64,000 bases of DNA. Source: Vermamoeba vermiformis. Its lineage: Eukaryota. The DNA lies in assembly GCA_045837725.1 (NCBI GenBank), contig JBEWZL010000011.1, forward strand, positions 558,001-622,000, read 5' to 3'. Both the position numbers and the translations under genes were made by a program. The notes under the pieces are model-generated. The model saw only the letters and a program-made list of their open reading frames with translations. It was not told the DNA's origin and did not search any database. This document shows, piece after piece, positions 633 to 64,000 of this stretch (position 1 is its first letter; the number at the start of each line of letters is the position of its first letter).

Positions 633-1181
633 GTTCAGCCGTTAGAGCTCGAACACGCGAGTCTTTTTTTCGAAGAAACGACATCGCAAACCCCTCGAAT
701 GCTTACTCGTTACTTGCTTATTAGAATGTGAGCCTTCACAACGATTATGTTATTTTTTAATTACCGGATCCTTACGAATTATTTTGTTATACTAGAGAAG
801 GACATATTCAATGGGCAAGTGGCGGGTGGTGTTTTAGTATTATTAAAATAAAGCAAATGTATTAAATACCAAACACGGTTTTTAGGTTCTCTCGCCAAAA
901 AATCAAGGTGTCGCAAAGAACCACAACAAGGCGGTTTTAACTTGGACAATTTAATATGAAGTACTGCAGTAAAACTAATTAATGGCGTCGTTGGTAAGCA
1001 ACAGCCACTTTTGGTATGCGGCGCTGATGAAAAGCTATCGAGATTTTATCTCCTAATTTCCTGTAATAATTACCGCGCATAAATTATGGCAATTTTGCTC
1101 GATTAGTTACGTATTGCATCGCACAAAACTTCAGAGATACGATTTATTTGAATTTTTGTTAATTTAAATTTCAGATCTGCA

Positions 1182-4100
1182 ATGGACTGGTCGCCAAAGA
1201 AGCGTAAGAGGGATGAAGTCGATGTAAACGAGCTATCGCCTCAAGCGAAAAGAGGGAGAACAGATTCGAGCTCAGAGGACTCGTATTATAGCCGAAGCAG
1301 CGGATCTCCAGTGTCAGGCGAGGAATTGTACTACTCTAAGCCTTTTTTTATTGACGACAAAACATGCGTTCAAATGCGCGATGAGGTTTATCGCGTTGGA
1401 GACTGTGTGTGGCTTAATAGAGACCAGAGTTACACCTCTATAGTTCAACGAGGTGTGTACGAGACATTTATCGCTGCCTAGCACAGTATAATGACATGTT
1501 ATAATAGACGCTCCTGATACATATAAATATAATTGGATGGCAAGAATTGTGGGCTTTGAGTCGGTAAGTACAAGCAGATCCGCGGATAAGGACTTGGTAC
1601 TCATTTCGGGTAATATTACCAGGACAAAAATGACCCCGATGTGCCTATGATGCGAGTATCGTGGTTTTGGCAAGTTAAAGAAACTATATTGGGCAATGGA
1701 CGAGGTTGGAGCAATCGGTACGTGCAGTGAGTTAATCGAGATGCTTTTGACTGATGTGCATTGCTTCAGTGAGGTGTTTATGTCTACCAATGAAGTAGTG
1801 CAAGATGCGGAGTGTATTAAGGGACGATGCACGGTCTTGTACAAGGAACATTTTGACGATGATTATGCTGACTCATTGCCGCCTGACACTTACCTCTATC
1901 GATACTGTTACGACCCAAGTATGTAGCCGATATAATACTCCCCAGAGGGTAGCGATTTGTTATGCAGAGCTATGCTTATAGTTTATTTCAGAGACGAATG
2001 ACTTTTTGGATCCACCCTTCGTAGAGAAACATCCACAACCAAAGGTAACCATATGATTATTATTTTATTGGCTAATATATTGAAGGAGCCTGAGGGAGAG
2101 CGTTTAAGAGCATTAGATATATTTTCAGGCTGCGGTAAGTCAAGTGCATCAGCAAATGACACGTGTCTAACCTCACAATTAGGAGGATTCAGTTTTGGCA
2201 TGTCAAATGCAGGCATTGATATCAATTGGGCTGTTGATAAGGAGAAGGTACTTGTTGTAAATATAAATGGTGTGCTTGCTAATACCTTATGTAGGACATG
2301 ATCAGGACCTTTCGCAAGATGCACCCAGACACGCACGCGTACGTTGCAGACATCAAGGACTTTTTTTCACTGGCGCTCTTCGTCAATGAAGGGATATTAC
2401 CCGGCAGCAAAGAAGAATACAAGTTCTTCAAATCGATTGAAGAAGTGCGCAGTGAGGTGTGGTCACAGTACGACCTTGTGTTGTCATCGGATGTCTATCT
2501 CGTTGAAGATATTCGAGATTGTCGATGGTCCCGAAAGAGGAAACGAATCGAGTTTCGCATAAAATGGGAAGGGTACGTGAAGCACAACAGTTGAATGGAT
2601 GCGTCTGATAGTTTGTATTGAGCAGATGGCCAGAGGAAGAAAACTCTTGGGAGCCGATTGAAAATATTAACAACATGTCATCTATCAAGAGATTCCTCAA
2701 GAATAACCGCGAAAAATACTTTGCTGTAGAGCAACGAAGGCTGGTACGTAGGATCTATATTAATAGTAAATACCTAACTACTATGTCAGGTGGAACTTGT
2801 TGTAATTAAATCACCTGAAGATATGCCAATGAAAGAGCCCTTCATTCAAATTGATGCCTCGGAGTTATCAGCTGAGGCACACAAACAGCTGAAAAAGATC
2901 AAAAAGCTAACGCGACGAGGTCTACTTTACGACAAGAACTACGTGGAGAGGAAGAAAGAACGGAACGATGATTTGAGCGATGACAGCGACAGCGAAGAGA
3001 ACGGTCTGATCGTGCAATCGCAGAGCCAGGCTGCCGCACAGGGCATGCGATCGGATTCGTTCGATGACGAGTTCTTTGACGAGGACTTTGTCGAGGCAGA
3101 TGAAGCAGATAACATTGATGTGCGGCCTGTCAAAACAATCGAAAAGATTCTTGACATGCGATACGTTGAAGGCAAGGCACAGTACTTCGTCAAGTGGCAA
3201 TATCAGCCTGACTGTGCTGGCGAGTGGTGCTATTTGAAAGGCAAAGACCCCGCGGTGAAAAAGTACCAAGCATTATCTGCTGCTAAGAAACAAGTAAGCC
3301 TTGAGCACAGTCTGCAATCATACGCTAACGACCACTAGGAGCTGAAAAAGCGAAGGAAACAGATCAACGAGTCAATCGACAGCATTACAGATATTCGTGC
3401 GAAGAAAGTTGAAATGGCTAATGGAAAGAAAAAGGTACTGTAGAGTCTGGTTATATATGCAGTGCTAACATGAGGTCAGCGAGTAATCGAGTTCAAAGTG
3501 CACTTCAGCAAGTGGCCTGACGTCGAGAAGTGGATGCGACGGGAAGAATTGTATAACGTGCAGCATCTTTTGGAAGAGTTTGTTGCCAATAAGAAACGAG
3601 ACGGATCACTGCCCACGATCGATACGTGTGACGTCATCGTTGGAGGTACTTGACACGTGCTTGTTGTGTGCCCTTGATCTTAACTGTGACTTGTGCAGGT
3701 CCCCCGTGCCAAGGATTCAGCGTCATGAACAACATGCGGTACACTCTCAGTCAGAACGACGTTTTCAAAGACAAGCGCAATAGGCTCATCAAAGTACGTT
3801 ATCTTGTGCATTCTAATCCTTTGCTTAATGTGTGCTTTAGGTCTGGGCGCGTTATGTGTTATATTTTAAACCGCGATTTGCTGTGCTCGAAAACGTCAGC
3901 GGATTGTTGTCGTTCTTTGAAGGCGCGGCAATGAAGTCCCTAATCAAAGTGCTCTTGCGACATGGCTATCAGACACGTGTCAGGATGATCAACACGGCTC
4001 AGTATGGTCTCCCTCAGTCACGCTGGCGAGTGTTCTTATTTGCAGCCAGACAGGGCGAGTGGATGCCAAGGTAAGTTTGAAACGCACGTTTTAACGTGGA

Positions 4101-5017
4101 CCGGCTGACACATGTCATCCATTAGACTACCCAAGCCAACGCACTTTGTCGAGTCCAAAGTACACAATGATGTAGAAGTACCTCCGCCACCTTTAAGCGA
4201 TGGTAAGTGAAGCAGTAATAATGCACTCTTCAGGGTCTAATTCGCTTGTGTAGCTTGGAAAGGTATCGCCAATTTGGCAGCGTGTCATGCGCGAAATGAC
4301 AACATTTATCACGTGCGTGACTTTGATGATTACGACAAGTGCAAGCCAGAGTTTGAAAAGGTGTGCCCGGAGCGTGAGTGTCCTACAATAGAAGACGCGA
4401 TCGGTGATTTGCCTGACGAGGCTGTGGACAAATATCATGATGACCAAGACAGACCAGTGCAGTACTTGTGCGACCCATTGAATGGCTTTCAACACTGCAT
4501 GCGTTTGTTGCCACCTGAAGACGAGACTAGATTCGCAAAGAAAGATGAAGAGGGACGTGTCATGACACGTGTCACGATGCACATTGCACAACCATTCGCT
4601 GAACGAGAGCGAAGATATGGCTGGGACGACATCTTTGGCACACTAACGGTAAGTGCACGCCCACACCATTGCATCATCTGACGTTATGTAGACGCGTGGC
4701 TATGTGAATCACCCCTCGGGCAACAGATCCATCAGTCTGCGTGAGGCAGCACGTGCACAAGGGTTCCCGGACTGGATTGAATTCGAAGGGTCGTTCAGCT
4801 CACGGATAACTCAAATAGGCAATGCAGGTAAGTAGCACTGATTGCAGCACAACATGTACTAACATGTGCCACAGTGCCCGTGTTTGTGGCGGATCAGATC
4901 GGTCAAGCCATCGTCAGTGCCGCGGAGACAGGCACACGCATACAACCAACACCCTTTGCAATGTTCTTGCAATCTGATTACACTGATCCAATTGCTAATC
5001 TGCCTGTGTATAATTAA
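1182..5017 (+). CDS. Chromomethylase-like C5 cytosine DNA methyltransferase (BAH domain + three chromodomains inserted in the catalytic domain), multi-exon
   Basis: N-terminal NLS (PKKRKR); BAH (YRVGDCVWL...WMARIV...YLYRYCYDP); motif I LRALDIFSGCGG; chromodomains at ~2495-2700, ~3130-3270 and ~3370-3580; motif IV DVIVGG|PPCQGFS; VI ENV; VIII QSRWRVF; IX SLREAARAQGFPD; X QIGNA|VP; TAA at 5015-5017. Confidence 0.9.
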
Positions 5018-5066
5018 TGTAAATAAGGTATGTGAGTGAACTTCATGACATTTATTCTCGTTGTAA

Positions 5067-6428
5067 TTACAACATCTCAAGCAAGTCCCAATTAGATCCG
5101 CTTAATGCTTGAAGGACGTCGTTGTGACTGTTGACCTCTGGGTCACTAAAATATTGCTCCCACTCCTTGTCCGTGATCTCGTATAACGTCCTAAGAACAA
5201 CATCTCCTTGTTCAATCGTAAATGGATCCAAATCGAATCGCTCTTTAACGTCGAATACCTCTGATTTTCCTGTGCTGTTATCGCCCTGACAGAATTGTTA
5301 TTAAAAGTCTTCACGAACGATGCTACGTACTTTAACGCATAACAGCCGTGTGTATGAATCGTGTTCGTGACTATTGTAGATGTAGAACATTGCTAGCCAG
5401 CGATCAGGCGACAAGAATGTGAGCCACGAGTAATAATTCGTGATGTGATAATTGTCTGCAAACTTCATTGACGATGAGGCCTCGATGCTAGACAACACAA
5501 AGTTGTTGGCGCTGAGTCTTTTGATCGGGTCTCCAAACAGCTCCAAGAGTTGTGTTTTGATCGGCGGACTGGATTTTGATTAGCGATTGATAATAGAGCA
5601 AATCAAGAGATGTCTTACATTCGTAGTCCAACCTTCGTGATTGCGCCGGTGGGCGACTTAACAGTGATTGGCTCTGGACTTATTCGAGCCTCTTGCAACA
5701 GCTGATCACGTGACTTGAAGAGGTGTTTGACGCCGGGCCACACGTCCATTACCCAACTGGGCCGCATTGTGGTCATGAATGAAGTGAGGGCCAGTAACAC
5801 CGCGAACTGTTTCGTCGTGATGTAATTGTCGCGACAATACGATTCTGTATATATTTGTGTGTCAGTATAATGTCATGACAGTGATTGGTCCTTACGATAA
5901 TCGCTCATGTTGACGTCCGTGTACATTTGTATAAATGGACGTGGGTCCCCTTCCGGTGCAGAGATGGTTACATTAGCATTTAATTCCTCGATCAGTTGTG
6001 CTCGCCATGCATTCACATCGGCAGGAATATGAGAGAGTTTGCGCTTCTTTTTGCTTTCATTCAAATAATTTTGTTTCTCTGTCAACCAATGCATTTGAAC
6101 ATTGATTTCTGCTTCTAGTAAAGGTGAAATGTAATAGAACAGTTCTTCGTAGTCGAGAAAGTCTTTAATTGATGTTATTACTGGAATTGCAAGCGGATGA
6201 GGGTGCCAAACTCTTGGATCTCGGACACTTCGATTCCACCTGGAAATCCAACGTTGAATTAATTCCATTTTTTAGCATTTAGTAATTAATATTAGTAATA
6301 TAGCCGTAGTCTTACTTTTTATTCGCAAATAGGATTGATCCAACTGCCGAAGGGGAGTTTGTAATTACATGACGAAACATAGTTAGTAAAACGTCCTCTA
6401 GATATAAAGGGCTTGTGTTGTGCTCCAT
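5067..6428 (-). CDS. Uncharacterized protein with F-box-like N-terminus, paralog A of a tandem pair
   Basis: Spliced ORF MEHNTSPLYLEDVLLTMF...PSAVGSILFANK; shares WPGVKHLFKSRDQL, SWLTFLS and LYEITDKEW blocks with the neighbour. Confidence 0.65.
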
Positions 6429-6469
6429 GTTTGATTTAATTTTTATTTTGGCAGCGAAAAGACTTGAAA

Positions 6470-7854
6470 TCAGGGATGAAGGAAATCTCGCTTCAGACCA
6501 CTCAATACGCTCAACACGTGATAGTACTTGGGCTCAGGCACCTTACTCCACTCTTCATCGCTAAATTCATACAGCTGCTTGATAGCTTCATTCGCTTTAT
6601 TCGAGCTGAATTCCTCTTCCCTCAACTTGAATCGTTCTCGCAAATCAAACATTTCAATCTCTGGTGATGTGGTTGAGCCCTGATTATCATTAGTACTATT
6701 GCACTATTACGGAGCGATGAATATGAATATACCTTAACAACTATGAGTGGTTTGACATCAGTCTGCTGGTTGGCTTCAAATAACAAAAACAATGCAATCC
6801 AGTGCTCGTCAGACAAGAAAGTGAGCCACGAGGCACTGATAAATACATGAAAGCTGTCTATCACATTCAGACTCGAATAACTCTCGGAACAGCCGAGCAG
6901 GTACGAGTTGTCATACAACCGTTTGAATGATAACCGCTCCTCTTCGTCGAATGTGTCAAATATCTTAATCCTATATACCAAAGATGAGATTATTTCCTTT
7001 TTAGGCAAGATTAAGTCAAGTCAACCTCTTCAAACCTTGAGCCGAGATCGTACTCGAAGTAGCGACTTTCATTTTGAGCTGACCAGTCGGTCCTAATACA
7101 TCCAATATTTCTTCTAATTGCTGTCGTGTTTTGAACAAGTGGTTGACACCTGTCCACTTGTCAAATTGAACAGACGGCAGCACATCTGGCCAGTAAGTGC
7201 TTAAGACGAGCATCACCGCCATTTGTCGATATGTTAAACCACAGACTTGTCGAAGTGCGTCTATAACTATATTATTAAGATATTCAAATGACTGTATGAC
7301 TTGCCATATTTAATCCAGCCTGATTGTTCTTTAATAAGCTCGTACAAAAACGGTGTCAAGCCTTTGATATTCTGCAATTCACTCTTCATTATAGTCTTTA
7401 ACTCGCCAACGTCTGTTTTTAAACAGCGATTTGTAATCAGAGCGCGTCTGCGCAATTCTGCAGTCTTTTTTTTTCTTAATGCACGCTTGATCTCAGCACT
7501 GTGCTCCAATATTTTTAATTCAAGGATGTATTCTTCCAATTTGGAATAGCTAACAAGATCTTCTGTATTTTCGTGAGCAATATGCGACAATAAAGGGTTT
7601 TTTATCCACAGTATTCTTTTTCGAATATTTTTGTGCCATCTAGCGGTGTAAATAATTAAGCAAACTGGCCACAATATTAATATAGCAATATTATTTGTGC
7701 AATCAATATTTCGCACTTACTTCTTGCTCACGAGTAAGGTAGATCCGACTGCCGAAGGACAGACTTCAATCACCGCAGCAAATATACGTGTCAGGATATC
7801 ATCAAGTTCTAAAATATTACTAACTATTGAGGGATCGTTGGTGTGCTTCTCCAT
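6470..7854 (-). CDS. Uncharacterized protein with F-box-like N-terminus, paralog B of a tandem pair
   Basis: MEKHTNDPSIVVSNILELDDILTRIF...CPSAVGSTLLVSK; WTGVNHLFKTRQQL, SWLTFLSDEHW, LYEFSDEEW; intron positions similar to paralog A. Confidence 0.65.
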
Positions 7855-36784: not shown

Positions 36785-38619
36785 ATGGCGATGATTTGCT
36801 CCAGTAAGTCAAACAGATCTGGCCTCGTTGCTCTTTTGCTTTCGCTAAGAAAATTATCACGGCTGTGAAGGCCAATTATTACTCGATTAAAAATTAACAA
36901 TAATTATTGTTAGTCTCTGGCGAAGTTGCTGAGGACCCAGTCGTCACTAGAAACGGAGATGTATTTGAAAGGAGATTAGTTGAAAAATATATTGCCGCCA
37001 ACGGCGTAGATCCAATTACAAAAACTCCATTGACCAAAGAAGAATTGATTGCTATTAAAGGTAAATGGCCACAAAAATTATCGATTACGCACTCAGAACA
37101 GAAATGAAAAATTTATCGCATCCAAGAATAATTACCGAACGTTACAATAACACTGCTCGATATAATTATGTGCAAATCCATGTGAATATATTAATATATG
37201 CATAAAAATGCTCAATAACAACTGTATCGCGTTCGCCTACTGACAGATGTGTCTCGTTCAGTGAAACAAGGCGCTACAAGTGCCCCGCGCAGCACCACCA
37301 ACGGCACGTCCATTCCACAACTGCTGACGACCTTTCAGAACGAGTGGGACGCGCTAGTGCTGAGCGTGTTCAGTCTCAAACAGCAGCTGCTCACCACGCG
37401 TCAAGAGCTCTCGCAGGCACTCTACCAACACGACGCTGCGCTGCGTGTCATTGCGCGTCTGACACGTGAACGCGATGAAGCACTTGACCAAATTAAGAAG
37501 TTGTCAGCTTCAGGTCACGTGATCAGCGCTCAAGCCAGCCAATCACGCGGCGGCGATCAGATGGAGGTCGAGCCCGTGTCGCAGTACCCTGGACTGTCGA
37601 GCGAGGCCAAGACCAAGTTCACCAAGCGCTCGCAAGAGCTCTCAGCTGAGCGCAAGAGCCGCAAGGCCCCCAGCACACTGGCCCCCGTCGAGTACATCAA
37701 GTCCATCAAGTCTGTCGCGCACATTCCCCCGCACAAGACCTCCGTGCCGGGAGTGACGTGCCTCGATGTGCACGGCGATCACGTGGTCACAGGTGGTGCG
37801 GACAACACAGTGGTGCTGCTCAGCAATCAAATGCAGCGCACTGGTGAGCGCATCAGCGGTGTGGTGAGCAAGAAGGACGCTGTGTTGAGCGGACACAGCA
37901 AGCGCGTGAACAAAGTGAAATTTCATCCCGAGTGGAGTGCCGCACAAGATGTCATTGTCAGCTGCAGTCAAGACAGCACAGTGCGTGTTTGGCGCGAACA
38001 GAAGGAGGCCCACGTGATCAGTGCGCACCAGGGCTCAGTGACCGACATTGACATTCACTGCGTGGGCGATCACGTGCTCGCGACGAGCAAAGACGGTCAC
38101 TGGTCGCTGTCAGATCTGCACACGGGCCAGACCCTCGTGCTGACAGCTGGTCAGAGCGGATTCAGCGGCTGTTCCTTCCACCCCGACGGTCTCATCTTCG
38201 CCACGGGTGGTGACGACGGAGTGGTGCGCGTGTGGGACGTGAAGAGCAACAAGAACGTCGCCAACTTCGAGGGCCACAAGGGCTACGTGACGGCACTGAC
38301 CTTCAACGAGAACGGCTACTTCATGGCCACAGCGGCAGAAGAAGATCAGGTGATCAAGCTGTGGGACTTGCGCAAGCCCAAGAACTTGACCACGCTCAAA
38401 CTCGACGCCCCTGCCACGGCACTCAGCTACGATTGGTCCGGCGTCTACCTCGCAGTGGCCACTGGTCACGAGCTGCGCGTGTTCACGGGCAAGAACTTTG
38501 AGCACGTGCACACCATGGACGAGCACACCTCGCTGGTGACAGGTGTCAAGTGGTTGTCACGTGATGCCACTGCCCTTGCCTCGACTTCGATGGACAGAAA
38601 TCTTCGATTCTGGGCTTAG
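36785..38619 (+). CDS. PRP19: Pre-mRNA processing factor 19 (U-box + WD40)
   Basis: MICS|ISGEVAEDPVV...FERRLVEKYI...DPIT; SIPQLLTTFQNEWDA...RQELSQALYQHDAALRVIARL; WD40 repeats. Confidence 0.96.
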
Positions 38620-43258: not shown

Positions 43259-46200
43259 ATGAAGCGAACTGCGAGCGAAGTCAACGGCTCAGATCCACAA
43301 GCCAACAAGGTACGTTGAGATTGTACGGGTTATTTGATCTTGGATCTGATCTCATCTACGGTTTAGAAACGAAAGATAGATGACACTAATAAAAAGAAAG
43401 TCACATTTAATGTTGCTGAAGATACACAAGAAGAACAACCACGATCCAAATCCAAATCCAAATCCCGAGTTAACGAGGAATTAAGTTTAGAACAAATTTT
43501 ACGCAAGTTGAACGCCAAAGAAAATGAAGATATTATAAGAGGTACGAACATTCGGTATTTAAAATATTATTTGAATTTTTGCCCCGCGATCGCGGGATAA
43601 ATGGATCTCAGAAGTCACTAAATGGTTGTTTACAGCACTGGGAGCACTACGATCGCCCATGATCACATTCTTACAAAAGTACAAGACGCCCTTTCTGCGC
43701 GGGCGACACACACCCAATCCAGCAGCAGCAGATGAGCCCGCGACGGTGGCCGATCAGTACGTGACAGCCTCGCCCGAGTGCAACGAACTGTTCTGGCTGT
43801 TGGAGGAACACTTCAAGGTCAATCGCTCGGACCCAGTCTGCGTGGAGGTCGTGCGCGTGTTGGAGACGCTGTTGGCGTACAGTCAAGCGCGGCCTCAACT
43901 GCGCGGGCTGGATCTGGTGCTGAGTCGCAAAGTGCTGCACTCGAGCTACAGTCTCAAGGCCCTCTATCACCACCTCAGCGGCGAGGACTACTTGGCAGTC
44001 AATGTCACGCTGCGGTTCATGTGCCAGCTGATTCAGATCTCACCGCTGATGGCGCGTCAACTGTTTGACAGCATCGACCTGTCATTCAAAGCCTTCGATC
44101 GCTTGGCTGACAAGCGTCAAAATCGCGCCGTCAAGCACCACGTCAACTTTGAACGCGATGCGCGCACGTGGTATGTGCGTCTGGGCCTGAGCGTGCTGTC
44201 ACTCGATGACATGTCGCTGACACGCGAGGCCTTGAGTGCTGTCACCGTGTCATCGGCTGTCACTCCGAGCACGGGACAGGACAGTCACGTGGCAGTCTCG
44301 TCCGATCGATCGCTCGCTGCGGTGTTGCGTCCGATCTATCAGAACACATTTGCCAAAATTGGCGAAGACTGTCCCGAGCTGATCGAAGAGATTTTGACAG
44401 TATTTCACGATCACGTGCTGTGCCACAAGACACTGAACAAAAAAGTCAAAACGCTGTTCTTCAACTCGTTCATTCTCGAACAGCTCGCCAAGCTGTACAA
44501 TCACGTGACTGTCGAGGGCCAGGACGAGGGCAAGTTAGTCGAGCACGTGGACAGATTCATGAACGCGCTGTGCTGTCACTCCGACACTGGCATCATCTAT
44601 CCCATCAACATGTAGGTCACGTGATTGATTTGAAGTGCCGTGTACTAATTAGGCAATAACTAGGTGGCAGGCAATGCAGCAAGAAGAGAGTCTGTTGCGC
44701 GAACACTACGCTAAAAATAGCAGCGACACGCGTCAAATGTCAAACGGCGACTCCAACGAAGAAGATGCAATGACAGCCATGTCACGTGACGTGTCCAGCG
44801 GAGGTCGCTCCGTGAGTTTGAAGAACGTGATGGTGCTCAAATTATTCCGCCACTTGAAGCCACAGCTGAGTGCACGCCAGCAACGCCTGATCTGTCACGT
44901 GCTCGTCACGTGCTGGGACATCAGACGCGCGTACTTGACGCAGCTCGGTACGATGAGTGCCACCACGGGCTCGCAGACCAGCATGGCCCTCGATCCGCGT
45001 CCGAGCTATATTTGGCTGCTGAATCTCAACTTCATCACGCACCTCATCCACGACACCATTGCCTATTTAGGAAGTGCTGACAATCTCGTCGCGAACAGAC
45101 CACGTGACTTGCGCGCAGTCGATCACGTGCTCAGTCAAGTGTTCGGCATGCTCGTGCCCCACGTGATCACGCGTCGCTTGTTGACACACGGCGTGTTGCA
45201 CCAGCACCGATTGGTCAGCTATCACGTGCTGCAGTTGCTCCGACACATTCACCGCCTTTATTCCGCACTTGCTGCGGCACTCATCGATCTCGGACACGGA
45301 GATGAATCGGCGGAACAATTGCGCCTCACTGTCACGCAACGACTCGCCGCTGATCTTAAAAAGAGATTTCCCGATCTGCAAACGATCTTTGCACTCAAAG
45401 CACGACTGACCCTGGGCGAGACCCCTGAAGGTGCCAGCAATCAATTGCCTTATATGGAATTCTTGGCTGTGTTGCGCGCGTACTTGACGTCGTTCCCAGA
45501 AGAATTCTTAGCGAACAAAATTGACCTCGGAAAAACTCTGTTGACCAGCCTTGACCGCGCACACGATCACGTGCTCGGCTTGCAACTCAGACTGCTGCTC
45601 AGCGCGGCGAATCTAAAATTAGACGCAGCGGGCCAACACTCGCTCCTAAAATGGAATGCCCCCATCACCGACGAGACGCAGACCTCTGACCACGGTGGTC
45701 AGACCCAATTGAGTGCCCTGCTGCAGCTCATGAGCGAAATTTCATCCGAATCCAGCAACGGAGGAGTGCTGCTCAATCTCGTGCAGCAGATTATGCTGAG
45801 CAGCGAGCTGTTCGACTTTGATCACCGCGTGTCACGTGACGAGCAGTGTTTGGAAGTGATCACGTGGCTGCACCAGTTCGGCACTGCGCCCTGGTCACGT
45901 GTCCTGCAGCACGCACTGAGCCTCACGCACGCACAGCCGTATCATCTCGCGGACAGATTGCGCCAGATCAGTCACGTGACACGCTGCTGTCAGCTGTCAC
46001 TCGTGTCATTCGGTGCCCTGGCCCATCACGTCACTCTCGCGCAACACTCGCCGTCACGTGACGAATTCTACGAGCGATTGGTGCGCGTGCTCGCGTGGCA
46101 GACTCGGCGCCCTGGTGGAGTACTCGCGACAGCACTGGCCCTGCACGTGACGCATCAACTGCCGCAACTGCCTGCCCAATTTAGACTTGAGGTCGATCAC

Positions 46201-49200
46201 GTGCTCGCAGCGAGTAAAGCAGAGCTGTCAGCACTGGACAGCGCACACGAGCACGTGCCCGACCAGTTCGCATCATTGTTACTATATTTGGCAATGGCAC
46301 TCGCACTGTCACGAGGCGATGCGGTGTCCGATGCACTGAGTCACGCGATGGATCAAGAACAGCGAAATTTCGAGCAGAAATGGTCACGTGTCTGGACGTC
46401 AAAAGTGTCAAACAGCGTGCTGCAGCAATTCTTGGCGACACTCGGCACTAAATTTAGCTTCTCCGTGCTGCAGACTGGCCTGGTCAATTCCCCGAAACTC
46501 AGTCACGTGCTGGAACACCCCGAGTTGACACTTGACACGCTGCTGGCACATTATTTGCACCCTCGTCTCGTGCTCAATCTCGCTGCGGAGATTTCAGTGC
46601 CGCAACACTTGACGGTGCAAAGTGCCATTTATGGTAAAGTGCTGTCAGAGCTCGATCAGGGCGATGATCACGTGCTCATGTCTCTCACGCACCACGTGAC
46701 ACATCACGTGACACTGTTGCTGGCCATGTATCGCCAGGGCCTGGTTCCCAGTGACAGGTGTCAAACACTGCTCCACATGTTGACATTCAGCTTCGAATTG
46801 CTTGATTTGGTAGTGCTGCGCTGTCCTGAGCACGCTTTGACACGTGTCATCGCAGACAGAGTGTTTGGAGCTGACGAGTTGACGCGTCTATTTTTAGCCG
46901 AGGACTCTGTTGTCGGTCTGCGACTCACGCACCGTAAGTATTGCAGCAATTATTTTGACACCTGTCATTTGCTGACATGCGCGCAGATCTCGCCGCGCTG
47001 CTCGAGTCCTTCGTTCAGCGAACAACCAGTGCCAGTCAGTCACGTGACGCGCTGCTGCATCAAATCTCCGCAGCGGTGCTGACAGGCAGTCACGTGATGC
47101 AAGTGACAGCACTGCGCTTGTTGATCGTGTTTCATGAACACGTCACTGCCACTGACCTGTCACGCGCTGTCAATCACGTGCTTGCCGTGCCAGTCAGTCA
47201 GCGCCACGTGTCAGTGATCGATCTCGTGCTCCAGATTATCAATCTCACGCTGGACAGTGCGGCGGAATTATTGGTCCTGGACTCGCTGTCAATTCGCCAC
47301 TTGCTTGAATGGCACGTGACAGCACTCGACAGCAGTCACAGCCACGTGATTGCGCGACTCATTCTCCATTCACTGAACGGCACTTCACAACACGCGCAGC
47401 TCGTACTGGCTCACACAGCAAAAATAGTCGCAAATACCTATTTTAAGCATCTGTCACGTGACCGCAGTGCAGTGCTGAGTGCCCTGTTGACAGCTGATTT
47501 GACACTTTTGACATGCTACGAACAGTTCTTGCTTGACACGCGCTGTCCTGTGCCCAAATATGGTCAAGTCACTTTGGATCACGTGTTAACGAATCATCTC
47601 CCGCGCGAGATTGCAACGAGATCGACTAGGGCTGACAGTACTCTGCGGTGGTTCTTTGCAGTCACCAGGGCCTACTGTCACGTGATCGATCGCTTGGCCC
47701 CGACCGCGAGCACTCAGCGCGTGATTGATTCACTGAACGAGCATTACCGTCACGTGCTGCTGTACTGGGCACTGACTGAGGACTGCGAGGACGTGCAGCA
47801 CGTGTTGCATTTCCTAATTAAGAAACATCCACTCCAACAGGCGCAGCTTGCTAAGCTGGTGAATGCAGTGGCACTGAACGGAGCTAAATTTAGCACCAGA
47901 CTGCTGTTGGAGCTCGTGAATGACACGCATGACACGCACGTCAAACTCGATGTCATTCGCCATTCACTGAACCACATCGCCGACACACGCGCGTCTGACT
48001 GGTGTCAAATCAAGACACGTGTCACTTGGCTGCCTGCAAACGATGACGCAGTTCAGCTATTGACGCGTGTCACCAAGGCACTCTTGTCGCACGATCTTCA
48101 CCGCGACGCGCTGGCCCTGATCGAGACAGCTGTCAACGCTCAAAATAGCCTCGCACTGTCACGTGATGTCCTCCAACAGCTGTCACTTCATTTGCAGTTT
48201 GCAGCTTCACTCACCAACGACCTGGCCCCACACGTGCTGGCAGTAATATTGCAATGCTTCAAAGCTATTAATAGCAGCGACGCCGCTCTGGACGAAGAAC
48301 TGCAACGCTTGCTGACAGCAGTGACACGTGTCATCTTGTTGACATATGATGGCACGCTTACTCAGACTGGAGTGCTGCGACGATTGATTTTCACTGAATA
48401 CGACCGCACATGCCACCAATTGACACGTCGCGTCACACACCTCAGTTTGACACCGCTGATGACCCTGGTAGAGCGCGGCTATTGGGGCGATGACAAGTAT
48501 CGCGACCAAATTTGGCAACAACTGTTAACTGAACACGAAGGTCGCCCCAATGAGCTTCTGTTCACTTTCCTAAATAGGAAAACAGAGGCGAGTCACCTGA
48601 CGAGCTGTCAAACCCTGCTCTTCGAGGGCAAATTACTCGATTTGGACAAAATGAAGTTCACCGTGAAGAATTTCCCGTGCGGCTATCAGTCGAGTGCAGA
48701 CAATGACACTTTGACACGTGTCACTGAATACGACAGCGCGCAGTGTTATGACCCGCTGATGACACTTGTCATTTGTCGACATCTGATGGATCAGTTTGTG
48801 ACACGTGTCAAAACCAATCAAGCACTCAAGACCGCAACCGATCACGTGACCGACACTGACAGCCTCGTGTTGACACTGATTGACGTGCACAAGTTGATCG
48901 ATTCAGGAGTTATTCCGCTCGCTGCTGTCGCAATGAGCTCCGAAGACACGACCGTGCGGCAACTGGCCTATCACGTGATTGCTTCGTTCCAAATCATCGT
49001 CCAGGTATGACCTAATTAGGCAATGAACGAACCGAGCTAATATTTCCTAATTAAGCACTCGCCATCGATCAAAGAAGGGCCGCAATTGTTGCAATTACTC
49101 AAAGTGCTGAACAACACTGTCACATTGCCTAATATGGTATTGCCCAATGCTCTCACGCAGTTCTTGGCCCAAGCCTTTGCAGTTCTTTTGCGCCCCTCGC

Positions 49201-59032: not shown

Positions 59033-62000
59033 ATGAGTGACTTGGCCCAACAACTGCGCAAGAGAAAAGATCAGACTGTAGGCACTACACAGCGTTCTAT
59101 TCACGTTAAGCCTAGTCTTTTGTTCGATGGACGTGAAGCTGCGCGCATCGAGACAACTGCCATCCATCTGTTGGCTCTGGGTGGCTTGGAACAGCTCAAA
59201 AAATTAGAACCTCGCCTCAAATCATTTGAAGCCACTTTGGTAATATTTATAAGCCATTTAAGTTTAATAATTGAATTATTATTTGCTCGGGATTTGGATT
59301 CGGATCACGATCGCGATCTTGTTTTGTTAATTAATGATGGTCCTCGCAAATACAACTACTTACCTCTTCCTTACAGTTCGCGAGTCCGAGCAACACGGAG
59401 CTGAACCGCGAGAGTCAGACCAAAGAAGCGAACCGTCGACTCGATGAGGCCATCGAGAGCTTTTTGTCGTTGGTGTCGCCGTTCTTCTTATTGAAGGCCT
59501 CGCACAAGTGCTTGGAGTATCTGATTCGTCGCTACAGCATCCACGAGCACAACAAAGACGCGCTCGTCAAGTGCATGCTGCCCTATCACGCGAGCAACGT
59601 GTTCGTGCGCGTGGTGCAGCTGATGGCACTCAAACACACGCCCTGGGAGTTCTTGGAGGCCTGCAAGAAGAACGGCGTGCCACTCGATCGCAAGGTGCTC
59701 GTCGAACACGCGGCTAAAAATAGGAGCATTCTCACCTTCGTGGCCGAGACCGTCAAAGAATTCATCGCCAACAAAGCGCAGTGCAAATCTCTCATTGCCT
59801 TTTTTGTCGCGCTCGTGCTCGAGACTGTCGGTACGCACCTCACTTTGACACCTGTCACTTGCCCGCACTAACGCGCTACATTTAGCTCGCAGCGGAGATA
59901 TAGATTCGGAGCTCGTCTCCGCGCTGTTGCCTTATTTGTTGCACGGCTTCAAGTCTAAAAATAGCGACTATCAGCTGAGCAGCATGATGATCACGTGCGC
60001 GCTGTGCAGTACACCGCAGAAGTCACGTGGTCTCGATCGCGCGCTGCTGTCCTCGCTGTTGACAGCTGTCATTGCACACGCGCAGCCGCACCACCATCAC
60101 CACGCACTGCTCGCGGCCCTGGTCGTGCTGTCCGACGAGCGGTTAGTGAACGATGACACCTGTCAACTGCCCGAGGCGACCTTTGACACGCTCACGCAGT
60201 GGCGAGATTTCACGACCTTGCTCAAAGAGGTGGTGGCACAGGGATACGCCATCGACAATTTGGTTCGGCCATTTTTCCGCTCATTGACCCGCGCAGTGTA
60301 CGTGATTGCCTTATTTGGTCATGGATTAGCTTACTAACTAGCTGTATTTAGTATCGCACGTCCCGAGTTGATGGAGACCCTCACTTGCCTTATTAAGGAA
60401 GTGCCCGTCGGCGATCAGATCTCAGCCCTGGTCGGTGAACTGCTGGCACTGTTTGAAGCTAATTATAGCGCGCTCAAGAACAACGCGGCATTCTGCCAGC
60501 AACTGAAAGAAGTGTTGCACGTGATCGATCGGAAATATCCGAATGAGCTCGACCAGGGCATCGAGACCAAACTCCGCGGTGTCACGCCCCGCACTCAGCC
60601 CACGTGGATGACGCTATTTATAGACACGCGCCACCACCCCCTCGCCCTGACCGAGCGGAACAACTCCGACTACACGACCGTGGCCTCTGGTCTCAAGGCC
60701 CTGACACGCCCCCGCGCACGTGTGTTGGCCCTGGATCACTTGCTGGCACTGTCACGTGACGAACTGGCACCACTGATCAGCGGAACATTGATGCAACACC
60801 TCGGAGATAGCAATCTCGAGCTCGTACTGCACGCACTGCAAGTACCCGATTTGGTCAAGCGCGTGGAGGCACCTGCCTTATTTGGCATGCTGTCCTCGCT
60901 GCTGCGCCAGTCACGTGTGCAGCAGAACAAGCACGTGCTCAGTCAAGCACTCCACGTGATGACGCAGCCGTTCATTGAATCGCACCCGCTGTACGCAGAA
61001 CAAGCATTGCCTTATTTGGTCAATCACGTGCTCTTCCTGACCGACACCCTCGAAGTCAACAGACAGGCGCTAAAAATAGCTCTGTCGTACCCGCACGAAC
61101 TGTTCTACGCCTTCAAAGCTGATCGCGTGTTGACAGGTGACGTGTCAAAAGTGTCAAACACCGACCTCAACGTGCGTGTCATTGAAGCACTCGCACGCGC
61201 CATTGCCACTCGACCAGGGCTGCAACAAGTGGTGACGCGCTTGGTGGCATCGAGTCACGTGCCTGTCCACGTGCCTGGCACCGCACAGCTGGCACTCATT
61301 CGCGCCCTGCATTTGACAGCTGATGACACGCGCCTGTCACTCGCCAACCTCGCTCTCGAGATCTGCGCACGTGACTGGCAGTCCGAGCACGTGACACACA
61401 TCGCCCCCTCGATCGATCAGCACGAAGGACTTCCTAATTGGGATACTGTCGCATTCGAAGAGTTCGTCGCGCGTCGTCCCGCACGTGTCTCGGAATTTCA
61501 GTTCTACGCCCTGCGTCACGTGCTCAAATCTGTGACTAAAAATGGCATCACGGAGTCGTACAGCTTCGTGAACAGCGGACTGCACGGACTGTTGGCCAAG
61601 CTATTTATAGTCATGACCTCGAGTGGGCCAGATATGACCAGCTTCGACCAGCACTTGAAACTGCTCTTTACCTTTTTGGGCAATCAGCTCACCAACTTCT
61701 TGGCCTATTTTTGGACCGAGCCGGAGATATCTCCGCTCATCTCCGTGCGCAGTCTCCGCGTGCTGAACACGTGGCTGCGAACAGCGACAGCCAATCACGT
61801 GACTGCTGCCCTGCCCGCCCTGCTCGCGGCCCTGGCTCACAATTCTCCGCACGTGCGCGCTGCAGCCCTGGCATGTGTCACCACCCTCGCGAGCAGCACT
61901 GCAATCTCGCCGCTATCTCCGCTGCTGTCACGTGTCATTGCCCAGGCCGCAGAGTTCGTCGCGTCACCGAAGCACTTGAGCACGTGGACACGTGCCGTGT

Positions 62001-64000
62001 GGGGTGTCAACAGCACACCTGTCAGACTCGGTGACACGGAGCGTGCGGAACAATTCCTCGCATTGACAGATGTCACGCTGGCCTCTCCGCTCACGTGGGT
62101 GCGTGTCAAACTGCTGTCCGCGTTCAGTGCGGTGGATGACACGGGACTGCGCGTCAAACTGATCTCGCGCACATCTCCGCACTTGACAGCACTCTTGACA
62201 CGTCTGCAAGTGACAGGTGCCACCGTGACACTCGCCGAGGCACGTCTGATCGAGACTTTGCTGCGCTATTATTCCGTCGCCCTGCCGCACCACACCGTGG
62301 AGGAAGTGCAGCCCTGGTTGACGGCCATGACATTGCAGTTCGAGAAGTATTTCCGCTCGCTGACACACGACAGCGCGGACGATATTACCATATTTGGCGC
62401 TGAGGACCCTACGATCGATCAGAGCGCATTTCCTTATTTGTTCAATCCCGCGCGTCTGGCCCTGGAATGCATTCATGAACCAGTGTACAAGACAGCGTCA
62501 CGTGACATTCAAGCCGCGCTGTTCACCACCGTGCTGTCGCTCATGCTGTCAAAACACGCCAAGATTCGCGCCCTGGCACAGAGTGTCATGCGACGGAAAA
62601 TTCCGGCCGTGGATCACGCGCTCATCTCGCACGAACTGGCCACGTGCCACCGCGAGATCTTGGCGGTGATTGAACGTCATTCACCGAACAAACGCAAACG
62701 TCAAAAGAGGTACAGTACGCCGAATGACACGTGTCACTGTAACTGACATGTTTGACAGCTCTGCCAATGACACGCCGAGCAGCGCCTTGACACCCGAGAT
62801 GGAACAAGATCTGGACAGCCATTTGACACGTGTCACTGCCCTGCTCGAGACATTCCAGTACCGACCGCAGTTCTTGTCGCGCGAGCACGTGCCACTGTTG
62901 TTTGCCCTGGTAGATCTCATCATCGACCAGCAGCACAGTGTTGGCAAGCGTAAGTCCCTCGCATGTCCAAATAAGGCAATATCTCACGCAGTATCTCCGC
63001 GCAGATCCCTCGATCGAGTACATCACGCAGCAGGTGCTCGGCAGTTTGACACTTGTCACGCAGGCCCTGGTCGATCACGCGCTCACGCAGCAGCAGTTGA
63101 CGGCACTCGGCGCGGAATTTCACGTGGACAGCATCGTGCAGGTGATTCGCGTCAGTCAGGATCCCTCCGTGCAGAAGAACGCGTTGCTATTTTTAGCCGC
63201 AGCAGCACGTGTGTTCCCCGCGCGCGTACTGGAGCACATCATGCCGATATTTACTTATATGGGTGCCAGCAGCGTGCGCTTCGACGACAATTATACATTT
63301 TTGGTCATTCAAAAGACCATCGAGGCCGTGGTGCCAGCACTCGTGCAGTCACGTGACACTTTGGCACCGCTGACGCTGTTCGCCGCATTCGTGCAACACA
63401 TCGGAGAGATCCCCGCGCATCGGAGATTGCTGCTGTTCTCGATGCTGCTAAAAATACTCAGCGCGCAGTACCTCTCCGTGCTGCTGGCACTGCTCTTCTT
63501 CAAGCACGTGCACCTCACCGCCACGGCCACTGCCAAATCGGGCACTGACAGCATCGTAGATTTCTGCAAAGACTTGTGCCTCAAGTTCGAGCCCCACGAA
63601 GTGTTGCAAAGCTTCAATCTATTTTTAGCCAAGTGCAACGACGCCGCCACCTACTTCCAAAAGAAGCGACGCGGAGAATCTGTCGCGGATCTCGAGCGAG
63701 ATTTGGCGGCACATGGCATCGACAAGCACGTGACTGAACACAGCGTGGTGCACGTGACCGGAGATTTCGTGAGATTTGTGGCGAGTTACGTGAGCAGCAA
63801 AGAATTCGTGCAACAAATGATCGATCTCGAAGGCGAGGCCGAAGAACGCACGCAAAGCTTGAGTTTGACACTTTTGGAAACCGCCCTGGTGCATGTCAAA
63901 CAGCTGTCCGCACAACAAGCTGCAAATGACAGCAGTCTGCGCGACGAATTGAAGCGACAAGTGGACGACAGCTACGAACTGATCGATCGCTGCAACGAAT
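59033..64000 (+). CDS. UTP10: HEAT-repeat protein UTP10/HEATR1 (5' part, runs off the window)
   Basis: MSDLAQQL, SLLFDGREAA, SPFFLLKASHKCLEYLIRRYSIH...LPYH, HIMPIFTYMGASSVRFDDNY, IPAHRRL. Confidence 0.93.

Follow-up and report, generated by a model that had tools for sequence, protein, structure and literature searches.

A candidate chromomethylase-like DNA methyltransferase with an enlarged chromodomain insert in the non-plant protist Vermamoeba vermiformis

In the part of PMC12344493 available to us, chromomethylases (CMTs) are described as plant paralogues of the DNA methyltransferase (DNMT) DNMT1 that gained a chromodomain; CMT-like DNMTs are also recorded there from haptophytes, with the speculation that they are remnants of transfer between eukaryotes. 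The accessible text of a second survey treats CMTs as plant-specific (PMC10538959). That of a third places haptophyte DNMT1-like enzymes near green-algal CMT and describes a diatom enzyme, DNMT4, with an N-terminal chromodomain (PMC9998398). In these same portions the surveys link non-CG methylation coupled to methylation of histone H3 lysine 9 (H3K9me) to the green lineage (PMC12344493, PMC10538959, PMC9998398). In a different arrangement, DIM2 reads H3K9me3 via its RFTS and BAH1 domains and HP1, according to the excerpted text of PMC11315935. No description of a DNMT with an embedded chromodomain in amoebozoans or other heterotrophic protists was found in searches of an open-access literature collection. 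The supplementary DNMT tables of PMC12344493 and PMC9998398 may nevertheless list such proteins. We analysed a stretch of 64,000 nucleotides (nt) of Vermamoeba vermiformis DNA (contig JBEWZL010000011.1, positions 558,001 to 622,000), referred to hereafter as the window, which carries a methyltransferase gene of chromomethylase design at 1182..5017 on the plus strand. Its product is probably a C5 cytosine DNA methyltransferase of a non-plant protist that is active in the nucleus and guided by chromatin. The enzyme most probably works in a chromomethylase-like manner, that is, as a histone-mark-guided cytosine methyltransferase.

Joining the reading frames across GT..AG introns gave a gene limited by an ATG at 1182 and a TAA ending at 5017. 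Exons 1-9 lie at 1182-1452, 1508-1563, 1623-1717, 1770-1918, 1992-2044, 2086-2134, 2183-2247, 2295-2572 and 2626-2743, and exons 10-18 at 2790-3293, 3339-3434, 3480-3645, 3699-3793, 3841-4070, 4126-4202, 4254-4648, 4692-4827 and 4875-5017. All 17 introns are GT..AG introns of 41-73 nt, and CTAAC-like branch sites occur in these short introns. The spliced coding sequence of 2976 nt specifies 991 amino acids (aa), and its sole stop codon is the terminal one. The gene and its parts are listed below; motifs II and III, in exons 7-8, extend to about 2370.

1182..5017, plus strand: methyltransferase gene, 18 exons, 991-aa product (joined frames, the ortholog P0001 and the spliced X10 contigs)
1392..2020, plus strand: BAH domain, aa 71-200, spanning introns 1-4 (Pfam BAH)
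2113..2193, plus strand: motif I, LDIFSGCGGFS, spanning intron 6 (alignment with the same motif in DNMT1 and ZMET2)
2493..2704, plus strand: chromo block 1, aa 313-365, interrupted by intron 8; canonical chromodomain by its residues, with aromatic cage Y/W/W
2705..3128, plus strand: charged linker, aa 366-491, with helices and with stretches that are acidic or rich in serine (conserved in P0001 and P0004)
3129..3290, plus strand: chromo-like block 2, aa 492-545, chromodomain-like in its N-terminal half (Pfam and hidden Markov model)
3375..3590, plus strand: chromo-like block 3, aa 559-615, interrupted by intron 11 and running into the motif IV junction (CMT-chromodomain hidden Markov model)
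3642..3721, plus strand: motif IV, GGPPCQGFS, with the catalytic cysteine, spanning intron 12 (invariant columns)
3880..4038, plus strand: motifs VI (ENV) to VIII (QSRWR) (Pfam DNA_methylase on exon 14, 55.1 bits)
4066..4700, plus strand: target-recognition domain (TRD), aa 741-902, divergent (alignments)
4734..4882, plus strand: motifs IX (SLREAARAQGFPD) and X (QIGNAVPV), spanning intron 17 (Pfam DNA_methylase on exon 17, 33.7 bits)

An earlier, sequence-only reading of this DNA had pointed to the gene, and the splice model is backed independently by an ortholog and by spliced contigs of a relative. Exon 16 used as a query among longer proteins gave one match from 63 candidates, P0001, a 991-aa protein encoded on a 4377-nt Logan contig and assigned the Pfam families DNA_methylase, Chromo and BAH by precomputation. 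P0001 is identical to the window protein at 861 of 988 aligned positions (87%) and is unbroken across all 17 exon junctions of the model. Because its frame of 991 codons is uninterrupted on the Logan contig, that contig represents a spliced transcript. The contigs of run X10, from a relative 95-99% alike, skip nine of the 17 introns (introns 1-5 and 10-13), eight of them as GT..AG introns at the predicted places and the ninth with a shift of 2 nt, listed as AA..TT; the other eight introns fall in zero-depth bins of these contigs. None of the listed holders of the stretch is recorded as RNA. That X10 is an RNA run is a guess, and it is the spliced contigs that carry the argument.

Three RNA sequencing runs of 2026 (X17-X19, about 1.85 billion letters each) gave two, zero and one reads on 900-5300, at 95-99% likeness. 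These runs share the species label of the best DNA holder, and the presence of the organism in them was not established by another stretch, so that the counts are no test of expression. The label may take in another strain or species; otherwise, expression of the gene would be very low in those conditions. The gene itself is unbroken and conserved, and spliced transcripts of it are present in a relative. The whole architecture is conserved in at least two relatives.

The chromomethylase design includes an insert between motifs III and IV. This insert measures 313 aa in the window protein and 314 aa in P0001 (collectively, the query), and it lies in the exact loop where plant CMTs and ZMET2 carry their chromodomain. 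Of 29 aligned rows with CMT architecture, 25 have 83-119 aa at this site, the others having 30, 149, 157 and 158, whereas 21 of 22 rows with DNMT1 architecture have 3-26 aa and bacterial rows have 0-6. The next largest inserts after that of the query are 187 aa (P0078) and 158 aa (P0014). A hidden Markov model (HMM) was built from 31 chromodomains embedded in proteins other than the query, and it found exactly three domains in the insert. Block 1 scored 44.6 bits in the window protein and 44.4 in P0001, block 2 scored 7.8 and 6.1, and block 3 scored 17.5 and 11.2. When the window insert without block 1 was shuffled, 3 of 2000 shuffles reached 7.8 bits and none reached 17.5; none of 2000 shuffles of the corresponding part of P0001 reached 6.1 bits.

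The blocks were also aligned locally with one another. In the window protein, blocks 1 and 3 aligned with a score of 55, against a shuffle mean of 25 and with none of 2000 shuffles reaching 55, and they have in common the motif DIR...(K/R)K(R)(R/V)IEF(R/K)(I/V). The likeness of these two blocks is weaker in P0001 (score 37, reached by 32 of 2000 shuffles). Blocks 1 and 2 of the window protein scored 40 (shuffle mean 22; 4 of 2000 shuffles reached 40), and no significant likeness was found between its blocks 2 and 3, whose score was reached by 366 of 2000 shuffles.

Block 1 aligns residue by residue with the chromodomain of ZMET2. Its cage is Y/W/W in both the window protein and P0001, aromatic at all three positions, compared with F/W/Y in ZMET2; the sequence-only reading had taken this cage to be intact, as it is. 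Chromodomain chains of HP1, LHP1 and CBX proteins match residues 307-368, and Pfam Chromo scored 65.9 bits on P0001 in two stretches, the better at 313-363. It was also found on window exon 9, which holds the C-terminal half of block 1. On exon 10 (block 2) Pfam Chromo reached 25.7 bits, just above its cutoff of 25.1, and covered profile positions 2-28 of 53 only. The cage of block 2 is K/W/Q, with the central W as its one aromatic residue. Block 3 has S/F/W in the window protein (two of three aromatic) and S/F/R in P0001 (one of three), the W of FSKW in the window being replaced by R in FSQR. By position, block 3 is the unit that corresponds to the CMT chromodomain. MAFFT aligned it with the chromodomains of CMTs column for column. 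Block 3 also has their junction with the catalytic core (EFV, about 8 residues, then LP..D.D.I.GGPPCQG), and the phmmer alignment of motif IV extends back through it in 11 matches. Motif I, chromodomain and motif IV occur in collinear order when the protein is aligned with ZMET2.

The window protein and P0001 are 92% identical in block 1 and 81% identical in block 2. The linker (106 of 122 positions) and block 3 each stand at 87%, compared with 88% in the C-terminal catalytic part. A genomic fragment from a further relative (P0004, about 70% identical) keeps the linker helix and the core of block 2. This conservation indicates that the insert is under purifying selection. As judged from these alignments, block 1 is a canonical chromodomain, block 2 a half-recognisable relic and block 3 a degenerate positional homolog of the CMT chromodomain; the three units thus read as one reader and two cage-less derivatives, not as three readers. 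Blocks 2 and 3 had been put forward as further chromodomains. Both score with the CMT-chromodomain HMM, to which extent the proposal stands, but Pfam sees half of block 2 and none of block 3. The multivalent chromodomain reading that was built on them is unsupported, since only block 1 keeps its three cage aromatics and the other two blocks are without full cages.

The remainder of the protein has the composition expected of a CMT, with a single BAH domain placed N-terminal to a DNMT1-class catalytic domain in which motifs I, IV, VI, VIII, IX and X are intact, a chromodomain embedded in that domain directly before motif IV, and an aromatic cage in the embedded chromodomain (in block 1 only). 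Pfam BAH matched P0001 at residues 66-198 (E 2.5e-12, 47.2 bits, cutoff 30.8) and gave 27.7 bits on window exon 4 alone. Pfam DNA_methylase scored 166 bits on P0001 in two stretches, the better at 620-958. In an alignment of 70 rows that included CMT-type, DNMT1-type and bacterial enzymes, P0001 kept all 21 invariant columns. Among these are G224 of motif I, G634, P635, P636, C637 and Q638 of motif IV, E682, N683 and V684 of motif VI, R726 and R728 of motif VIII, and R916, E917, R920, Q922 and D926 of motif IX. Of the nearly invariant residues (90% or more), G942, N943, A944 and V945 of motif X are kept; those of motif I are D218, G222 and C223. At E up to 1, the Pfam families on P0001 were DNA_methylase, Chromo, BAH (one stretch) and a weak Methyltransf_15; no RFD/RFTS, CXXC or second BAH was found at that threshold. 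The RFTS, two BAH domains and holozoan CXXC of DNMT1/MET1 are therefore not the composition of this protein, nor is the RFTS, BAH1 and BAH2 set of DIM-2, as it has no RFD and a single BAH. The earlier proposals of one BAH domain with catalytic motifs, and of a BAH followed by a C5 methyltransferase with a chromodomain embedded before motif IV, are borne out by Pfam and the 70-row alignment, and all the peptide strings quoted in their favour are present in the 991-aa model.

In a library of 1.84 billion proteins, 161 scored at or below 1e-30. Pfam Chromo was present in 24 of the 84 proteins scanned from the best 150 (11 of 40 and 13 of 44); among those 84, P0014 alone had two Chromo stretches and none had three. 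The named full-length eukaryotic matches were plant CMT2 and CMT3 (9e-50 to 6e-43), DNMT1s and P0012. P0014 (713 aa, Logan) has two canonical chromodomains in tandem, embedded ahead of motif IV, and P0012 (738 aa) has a BAH domain and an embedded chromo-like unit missed by Pfam. The EukProt identifier of P0012, m51a1_g1083, has the gene-identifier prefix used for Mastigamoeba balamuthi in PMC8136499, in whose main text the terms 'cytosine', 'DNA methyl' and 'chromodomain' do not occur.

Trees were built from catalytic regions with the insert columns excluded. Of 90 regions, 86 were used, P0015, P0097, P0114 and P0034 being dropped as permuted or truncated. In a quick tree of the 86 rows, the query, the CMT clade, the P0012 group and two long-branch rows fell together, with no resolution among them. 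Removal of 7 long-branch and 25 redundant rows left 54 rows and 442 columns for a more careful tree under the LG+C20 model with posterior mean site frequencies (PMSF). In this tree (supports as ultrafast bootstrap/Shimodaira-Hasegawa-like approximate likelihood ratio test) the 20 CMT-side rows formed a clade (100/99), P0012, P0014, P0021 and P0076 formed a protist clade (100/99), and the query lay outside both; the 25 DNMT1-side rows formed a clade of their own (96/85). Query, CMT clade and protist clade were joined at 98/90, with the query sister to the other two (87/47). In all the CMT-side rows of this tree the insert at the site is at least 69 residues long.

The query is thus not in the plant CMT clade, as far as the tree can place it. 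We prefer to regard it as belonging, deep and on a long branch, to a broader set of DNMT1-family enzymes with embedded chromodomains, which would include the plant CMTs and some protist proteins. The shared insertion is a stronger argument for such common descent than the tree. The sequence-only reading had offered a deep CMT relative and convergence as alternatives. Both remain the right ones to weigh, and the tree favours the basal position (98/90), but it does not settle the matter, because an approximately unbiased (AU) test leaves the query a place on the DNMT1 side. A premise of that reading does not hold as worded. CMT-like enzymes are not confined to the green lineage, given the haptophyte CMT-like DNMTs in print (PMC9998398 and PMC12344493, in the portions available), nor is the embedded chromodomain, which is also present in the protist proteins P0012, P0014, P0021 and P0076.

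AlphaFold with an alignment designated A3 gave a mean predicted local distance difference test score (pLDDT) of 69.6 and a predicted template modelling score of 0.66, the BAH domain and catalytic core being confident. Window exon fragments and P0002/P0004 had been left out of A3, MAFFT having misaligned them in the earlier alignments A1 and A2 (14-31% identity); a single-sequence AlphaFold run of P0001 gave a pLDDT of 33 and was unusable. Residues 581-620 of block 3 were predicted as strand-strand-helix at pLDDT 92-95. Block 2 had one confident hairpin (491-510), with helices from 531, and the linker had helices at 366-379 and 405-419 with the rest below 50, as were residues 859-884 in the TRD. 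Foldseek against the PDB placed ZMET2 chains at ranks 1-5 (E 5e-37 to 2e-33, TM-score to target 0.51-0.54), followed by DNMT1 from 2e-31, then MET1, then DIM2 from 4e-22. In the ESM Atlas, the best 9 of 30 matches were Streptophyta clusters with DNA_methylase, Chromo and BAH, the top three scoring 0.95. With VIA-align, ZMET2 4ft2_A gave Z 35.2 and a root-mean-square deviation (rmsd) of 3.1 over 428 residues.

The leading alternative is convergence, in which a DNMT1/DIM-2-class enzyme lost its RFTS and one BAH and independently gained chromodomains in a permissive loop before motif IV. We regard this as unlikely. The following observations weigh against the preferred reading, four of them (the AU result, the length of the branch, the ties between DNMT1 and ZMET2 and the catalytic loop) by speaking for convergence. 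The AU test did not reject the DNMT1-side position of the query (delta lnL 5.4, p 0.358). The branch of the query is very long (2.7 changes per column) and lay together with other long branches in the quick tree. The tree contains no named sequence of DIM-2, RID, or a green-algal or haptophyte CMT-like enzyme. DNMT1 and ZMET2 tie in phmmer (1.2e-43), as do mouse DNMT1 and ZMET2 in VIA-align (Z 36.4), and the catalytic loop 'CQGFSxMN' is closer to that of DNMT1 (CQGFSGMN) than to that of CMT (CQGISGFN/YN). Other observations bear on the readers themselves. Pfam Chromo had no match on exons 11 and 12 or on the whole of block 3, and on block 3 alone Pfam gave a single weak SF-assemblin match. A search of the ESM Atlas with block 3 alone (residues 545-618) likewise returned no usable match. 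The AlphaFold confidence in block 3 is not independent, because the alignment placed CMT chromodomains on it, and block 1, predicted with the same order of secondary structure, reached a pLDDT of only 37-68. In the BAH domain, columns 117 and 118 are aromatic in 20-23 of 24 CMT rows and M/M in the query. Finally, the ratio of observed to expected CpG in the window is 1.09, so that there is no footprint of deamination.

What stands against convergence is chiefly the insertion itself. It lies in the identical loop, and block 3 carries the CMT-specific junction column for column. In addition, even with the insert columns left out, the free tree grouped the query with every other chromo-embedded enzyme (98/90), Foldseek and the language-model features put CMT first, and RFTS and CXXC are absent.

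Lateral acquisition, by which a green-lineage or algal CMT was transferred into the protist and then diverged fast, is improbable. Transfer has been speculated for the haptophyte CMT-like DNMTs (PMC12344493, in its accessible part), and plant CMT2 and CMT3 are the best full-length eukaryotic matches among named proteins (9e-50 to 6e-43). These matches, however, amount to only 27-37% identity over 17-45% of the query. The CMT-side clade (100/99) excludes the query, whose branch is basal to this clade and to the protist group, and the gene has 17 short introns of the host type and ordinary nuclear gene neighbours. That the product is a chromatin protein which does not methylate DNA, or which acts on another substrate with the methyltransferase fold as a scaffold, is very improbable: the divergent TRD without the loop that ZMET2 and DNMT1 use in reading DNA, and a window without CpG depletion, would suit it, but none of the 21 invariant catalytic columns is lost (the catalytic Cys, ENV and RxR are among them), identity to P0001 is 88% in the catalytic half, and the counterpart of ZMET2 R804 is conserved.

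For ZMET2, the available part of PMC9256654 names F523, N524, R525 and Y526 of the catalytic loop and R804 and H808 of TRD loop II. The query keeps an arginine at the position of R804. Its TRD is without the segment of 7-9 residues that holds H808, and the same stretch is missing in comparison with NPEPMGK of DNMT1. The catalytic loop, CQGFSVMNNMRY(V/T)LSQND, is 3 residues longer than in every other aligned row, and TRD loop I gave no confident alignment. The TRD loops by which a CMT would read CHG and template-strand 5-methylcytosine (5mC) are thus incomplete in the query, the H808 segment being deleted and the counterpart of R804 present. In the BAH domain, where a CMT has an aromatic cage for H3K9me2, the WFY motif of CMTs is WFW and two columns aromatic in CMTs are M/M.

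The TRD-loop segment that is present in ZMET2 (with H808) and in DNMT1 helps to cradle the 5-methyl group of the template strand. Given that this segment is missing and that the catalytic loop has an insertion of 3 residues, the context preference and the dependence on hemimethylation are expected to be unlike those of CMT3, and for the same two reasons no maintenance of CHG methylation is predicted. The enzyme may instead resemble one driven by a histone mark in a de novo or self-reinforcing way, following the logic of CMT2 or DIM-2, more than one devoted to strict hemimethyl-CHG maintenance.

A probable mechanism can be proposed for the insert. The three units probably arose by internal duplication. 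Block 1, with its intact cage at one end of a conserved flexible linker of about 125 residues, would dock on a methylated lysine of histone H3, most likely H3K9me. Block 3, its cage lost, would keep the ancestral place of the CMT chromodomain, packed on the catalytic core beside motif IV. Block 2 would be a conserved relic, perhaps a spacer or a protein contact, and the BAH domain, by analogy with ZMET2, may be a second reader or an allosteric switch.

A more far-reaching reading follows the same lines and is put forward only tentatively, since we think it doubtful. In its first part, the embedded-chromodomain design would be no invention of plants but would mark an old eukaryotic branch of the DNMT1 family and be the source of the plant CMTs; its scattered protist survivors would be this organism, its relatives and the P0012/P0014 group, an archamoeba among them. 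In its second part, the reader would have been triplicated in this lineage, with the outer copy, which bears the cage, at the end of a long conserved tether and the inner copy, which has none, as a structural seat. If this is true, the enzyme could reach a marked nucleosome beside the DNA being methylated, and the organism would have histone-mark-driven 5mC, possibly non-CG and independent of hemimethylation.

The host is supported as a non-plant organism by a Prp19 open reading frame (ORF) of the window (37219-38619), which speaks against a plant or green alga as the source of the contig and for a host perhaps within Amorphea. This ORF had two matches at 93-94% identity. The named matches among its best 120 were from Arcella intermedia and animals only (40-44% identity), and no plant, alga or fungus was among them. 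A fungal origin, suggested at first by the short introns and their branch sites, is accordingly unsupported. Neighbouring ORFs belong to the actin family, Utp14, PHAF1, TLDc, the Hsp70 family, a CEMIP-like protein, Npa1, a gamma-tubulin complex protein, a BTB protein and HEATR1. A transposon-borne DNMT was considered and rejected, no transposon family having been found in a Pfam scan of 24 neighbouring ORFs.

Several other properties of the window were recorded. Directly downstream of the methyltransferase gene, on the minus strand at 5067-7716, are what appear to be two tandem paralogous multi-exon genes, which share the patterns ...DVKERFDLDPF...LYEITDKEWEQ... and ...DLRERFKLREE...LYEFSDEEWSK...; no Pfam family was found in the five ORF pieces scanned. 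The GC content is 38-47% in the first 14 kb, which hold the 17-intron methyltransferase gene, versus 46-57% beyond 28 kb, where uninterrupted ORFs of 500-985 codons occur (Utp14, CEMIP-like, Npa1/URB1-like and HEATR1-like). The hexamer CACGTG occurs 206 times in the 64 kb, 14 times the expectation from base composition, and CACGTGAC 93 times versus 3.4 expected from shuffles, of which none of 100 exceeded 8. The commonest 8-mers in the window are GTCACGTG, CACGTGAC, ATCACGTG and TCACGTGA. CACGTG sites are densest at 44000-48000 and 60000-64000, and six lie within the methyltransferase gene. They are dispersed, mostly in long ORFs and in several frames, giving recurring HVT, SRD and HVL peptides; their palindrome arms are mostly only 3-6 nt, and the motif contains a CpG. 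It resembles the RTCACGTG E-box (Cbf1/CDEI). Water, aquifer, groundwater and freshwater metagenome runs contained 0.05-0.36 of sampled words, from which no conclusion on habitat is drawn.

A gene built as a chromomethylase in a non-plant microbe suggests that this enzyme design is not confined to plants. It makes testable whether the plant feedback loop from histone to DNA methylation is older than plants, or was invented or transferred more than once, and what a tethered extra reader contributes to targeting. For the structure and function of ZMET2 and CMT3 it offers a natural experiment, in which the chromodomain in the canonical seat is cage-less and a duplicated copy bears the cage.

Set beside the known systems, the query is closest in design to plant CMT3/ZMET2 and CMT2, with which it has in common an N-terminal BAH, a DNMT1-class C5 methyltransferase, a chromodomain embedded before motif IV, the EFV..LP..GGPPCQG junction and a cage of three aromatics (in block 1). 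It differs from them in having three chromo-like units in 313 aa where a CMT has one in about 100, in the lack of a cage in the unit at the CMT position (block 3), in the absence of the H808 segment, in a catalytic loop that is 3 residues longer and DNMT1-like in sequence, and in its place outside the CMT clade (100/99) and in a non-plant host. The protist proteins P0012, P0014, P0021 and P0076 share its insertion site and its superclade (98/90), but have inserts of 76-158 aa with one or two units, form a clade of their own and are about 28-29% identical to it.

DNMT1/MET1 resembles the query in having BAH next to the methyltransferase and 'GFSxMN' in the catalytic loop. In contrast, the query has no RFTS/RFD or CXXC, one BAH instead of two, no TRD loop 'NPEPMGK', and 313 residues where DNMT1-side rows have 3-26; the VIA-align rmsd to DNMT1 is about 5 over 513 residues. 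With DIM-2 it shares membership of the DNMT1 family and, by analogy, probably the logic by which a histone mark recruits a DNMT, but DIM-2 has no chromodomain of its own and is a much weaker match (phmmer 3.9e-19, Foldseek 4e-22). The haptophyte CMT-like DNMTs and diatom DNMT4 are, like the query, non-plant DNMTs that have been called CMT-like or bear chromodomains. By description in the available part of PMC9998398, the haptophyte enzymes differ from it in consisting of an RFD, with or without BAH, and a DNMT domain, and diatom DNMT4 in carrying its chromodomain at the N-terminus, where that of the query is embedded in the catalytic domain.

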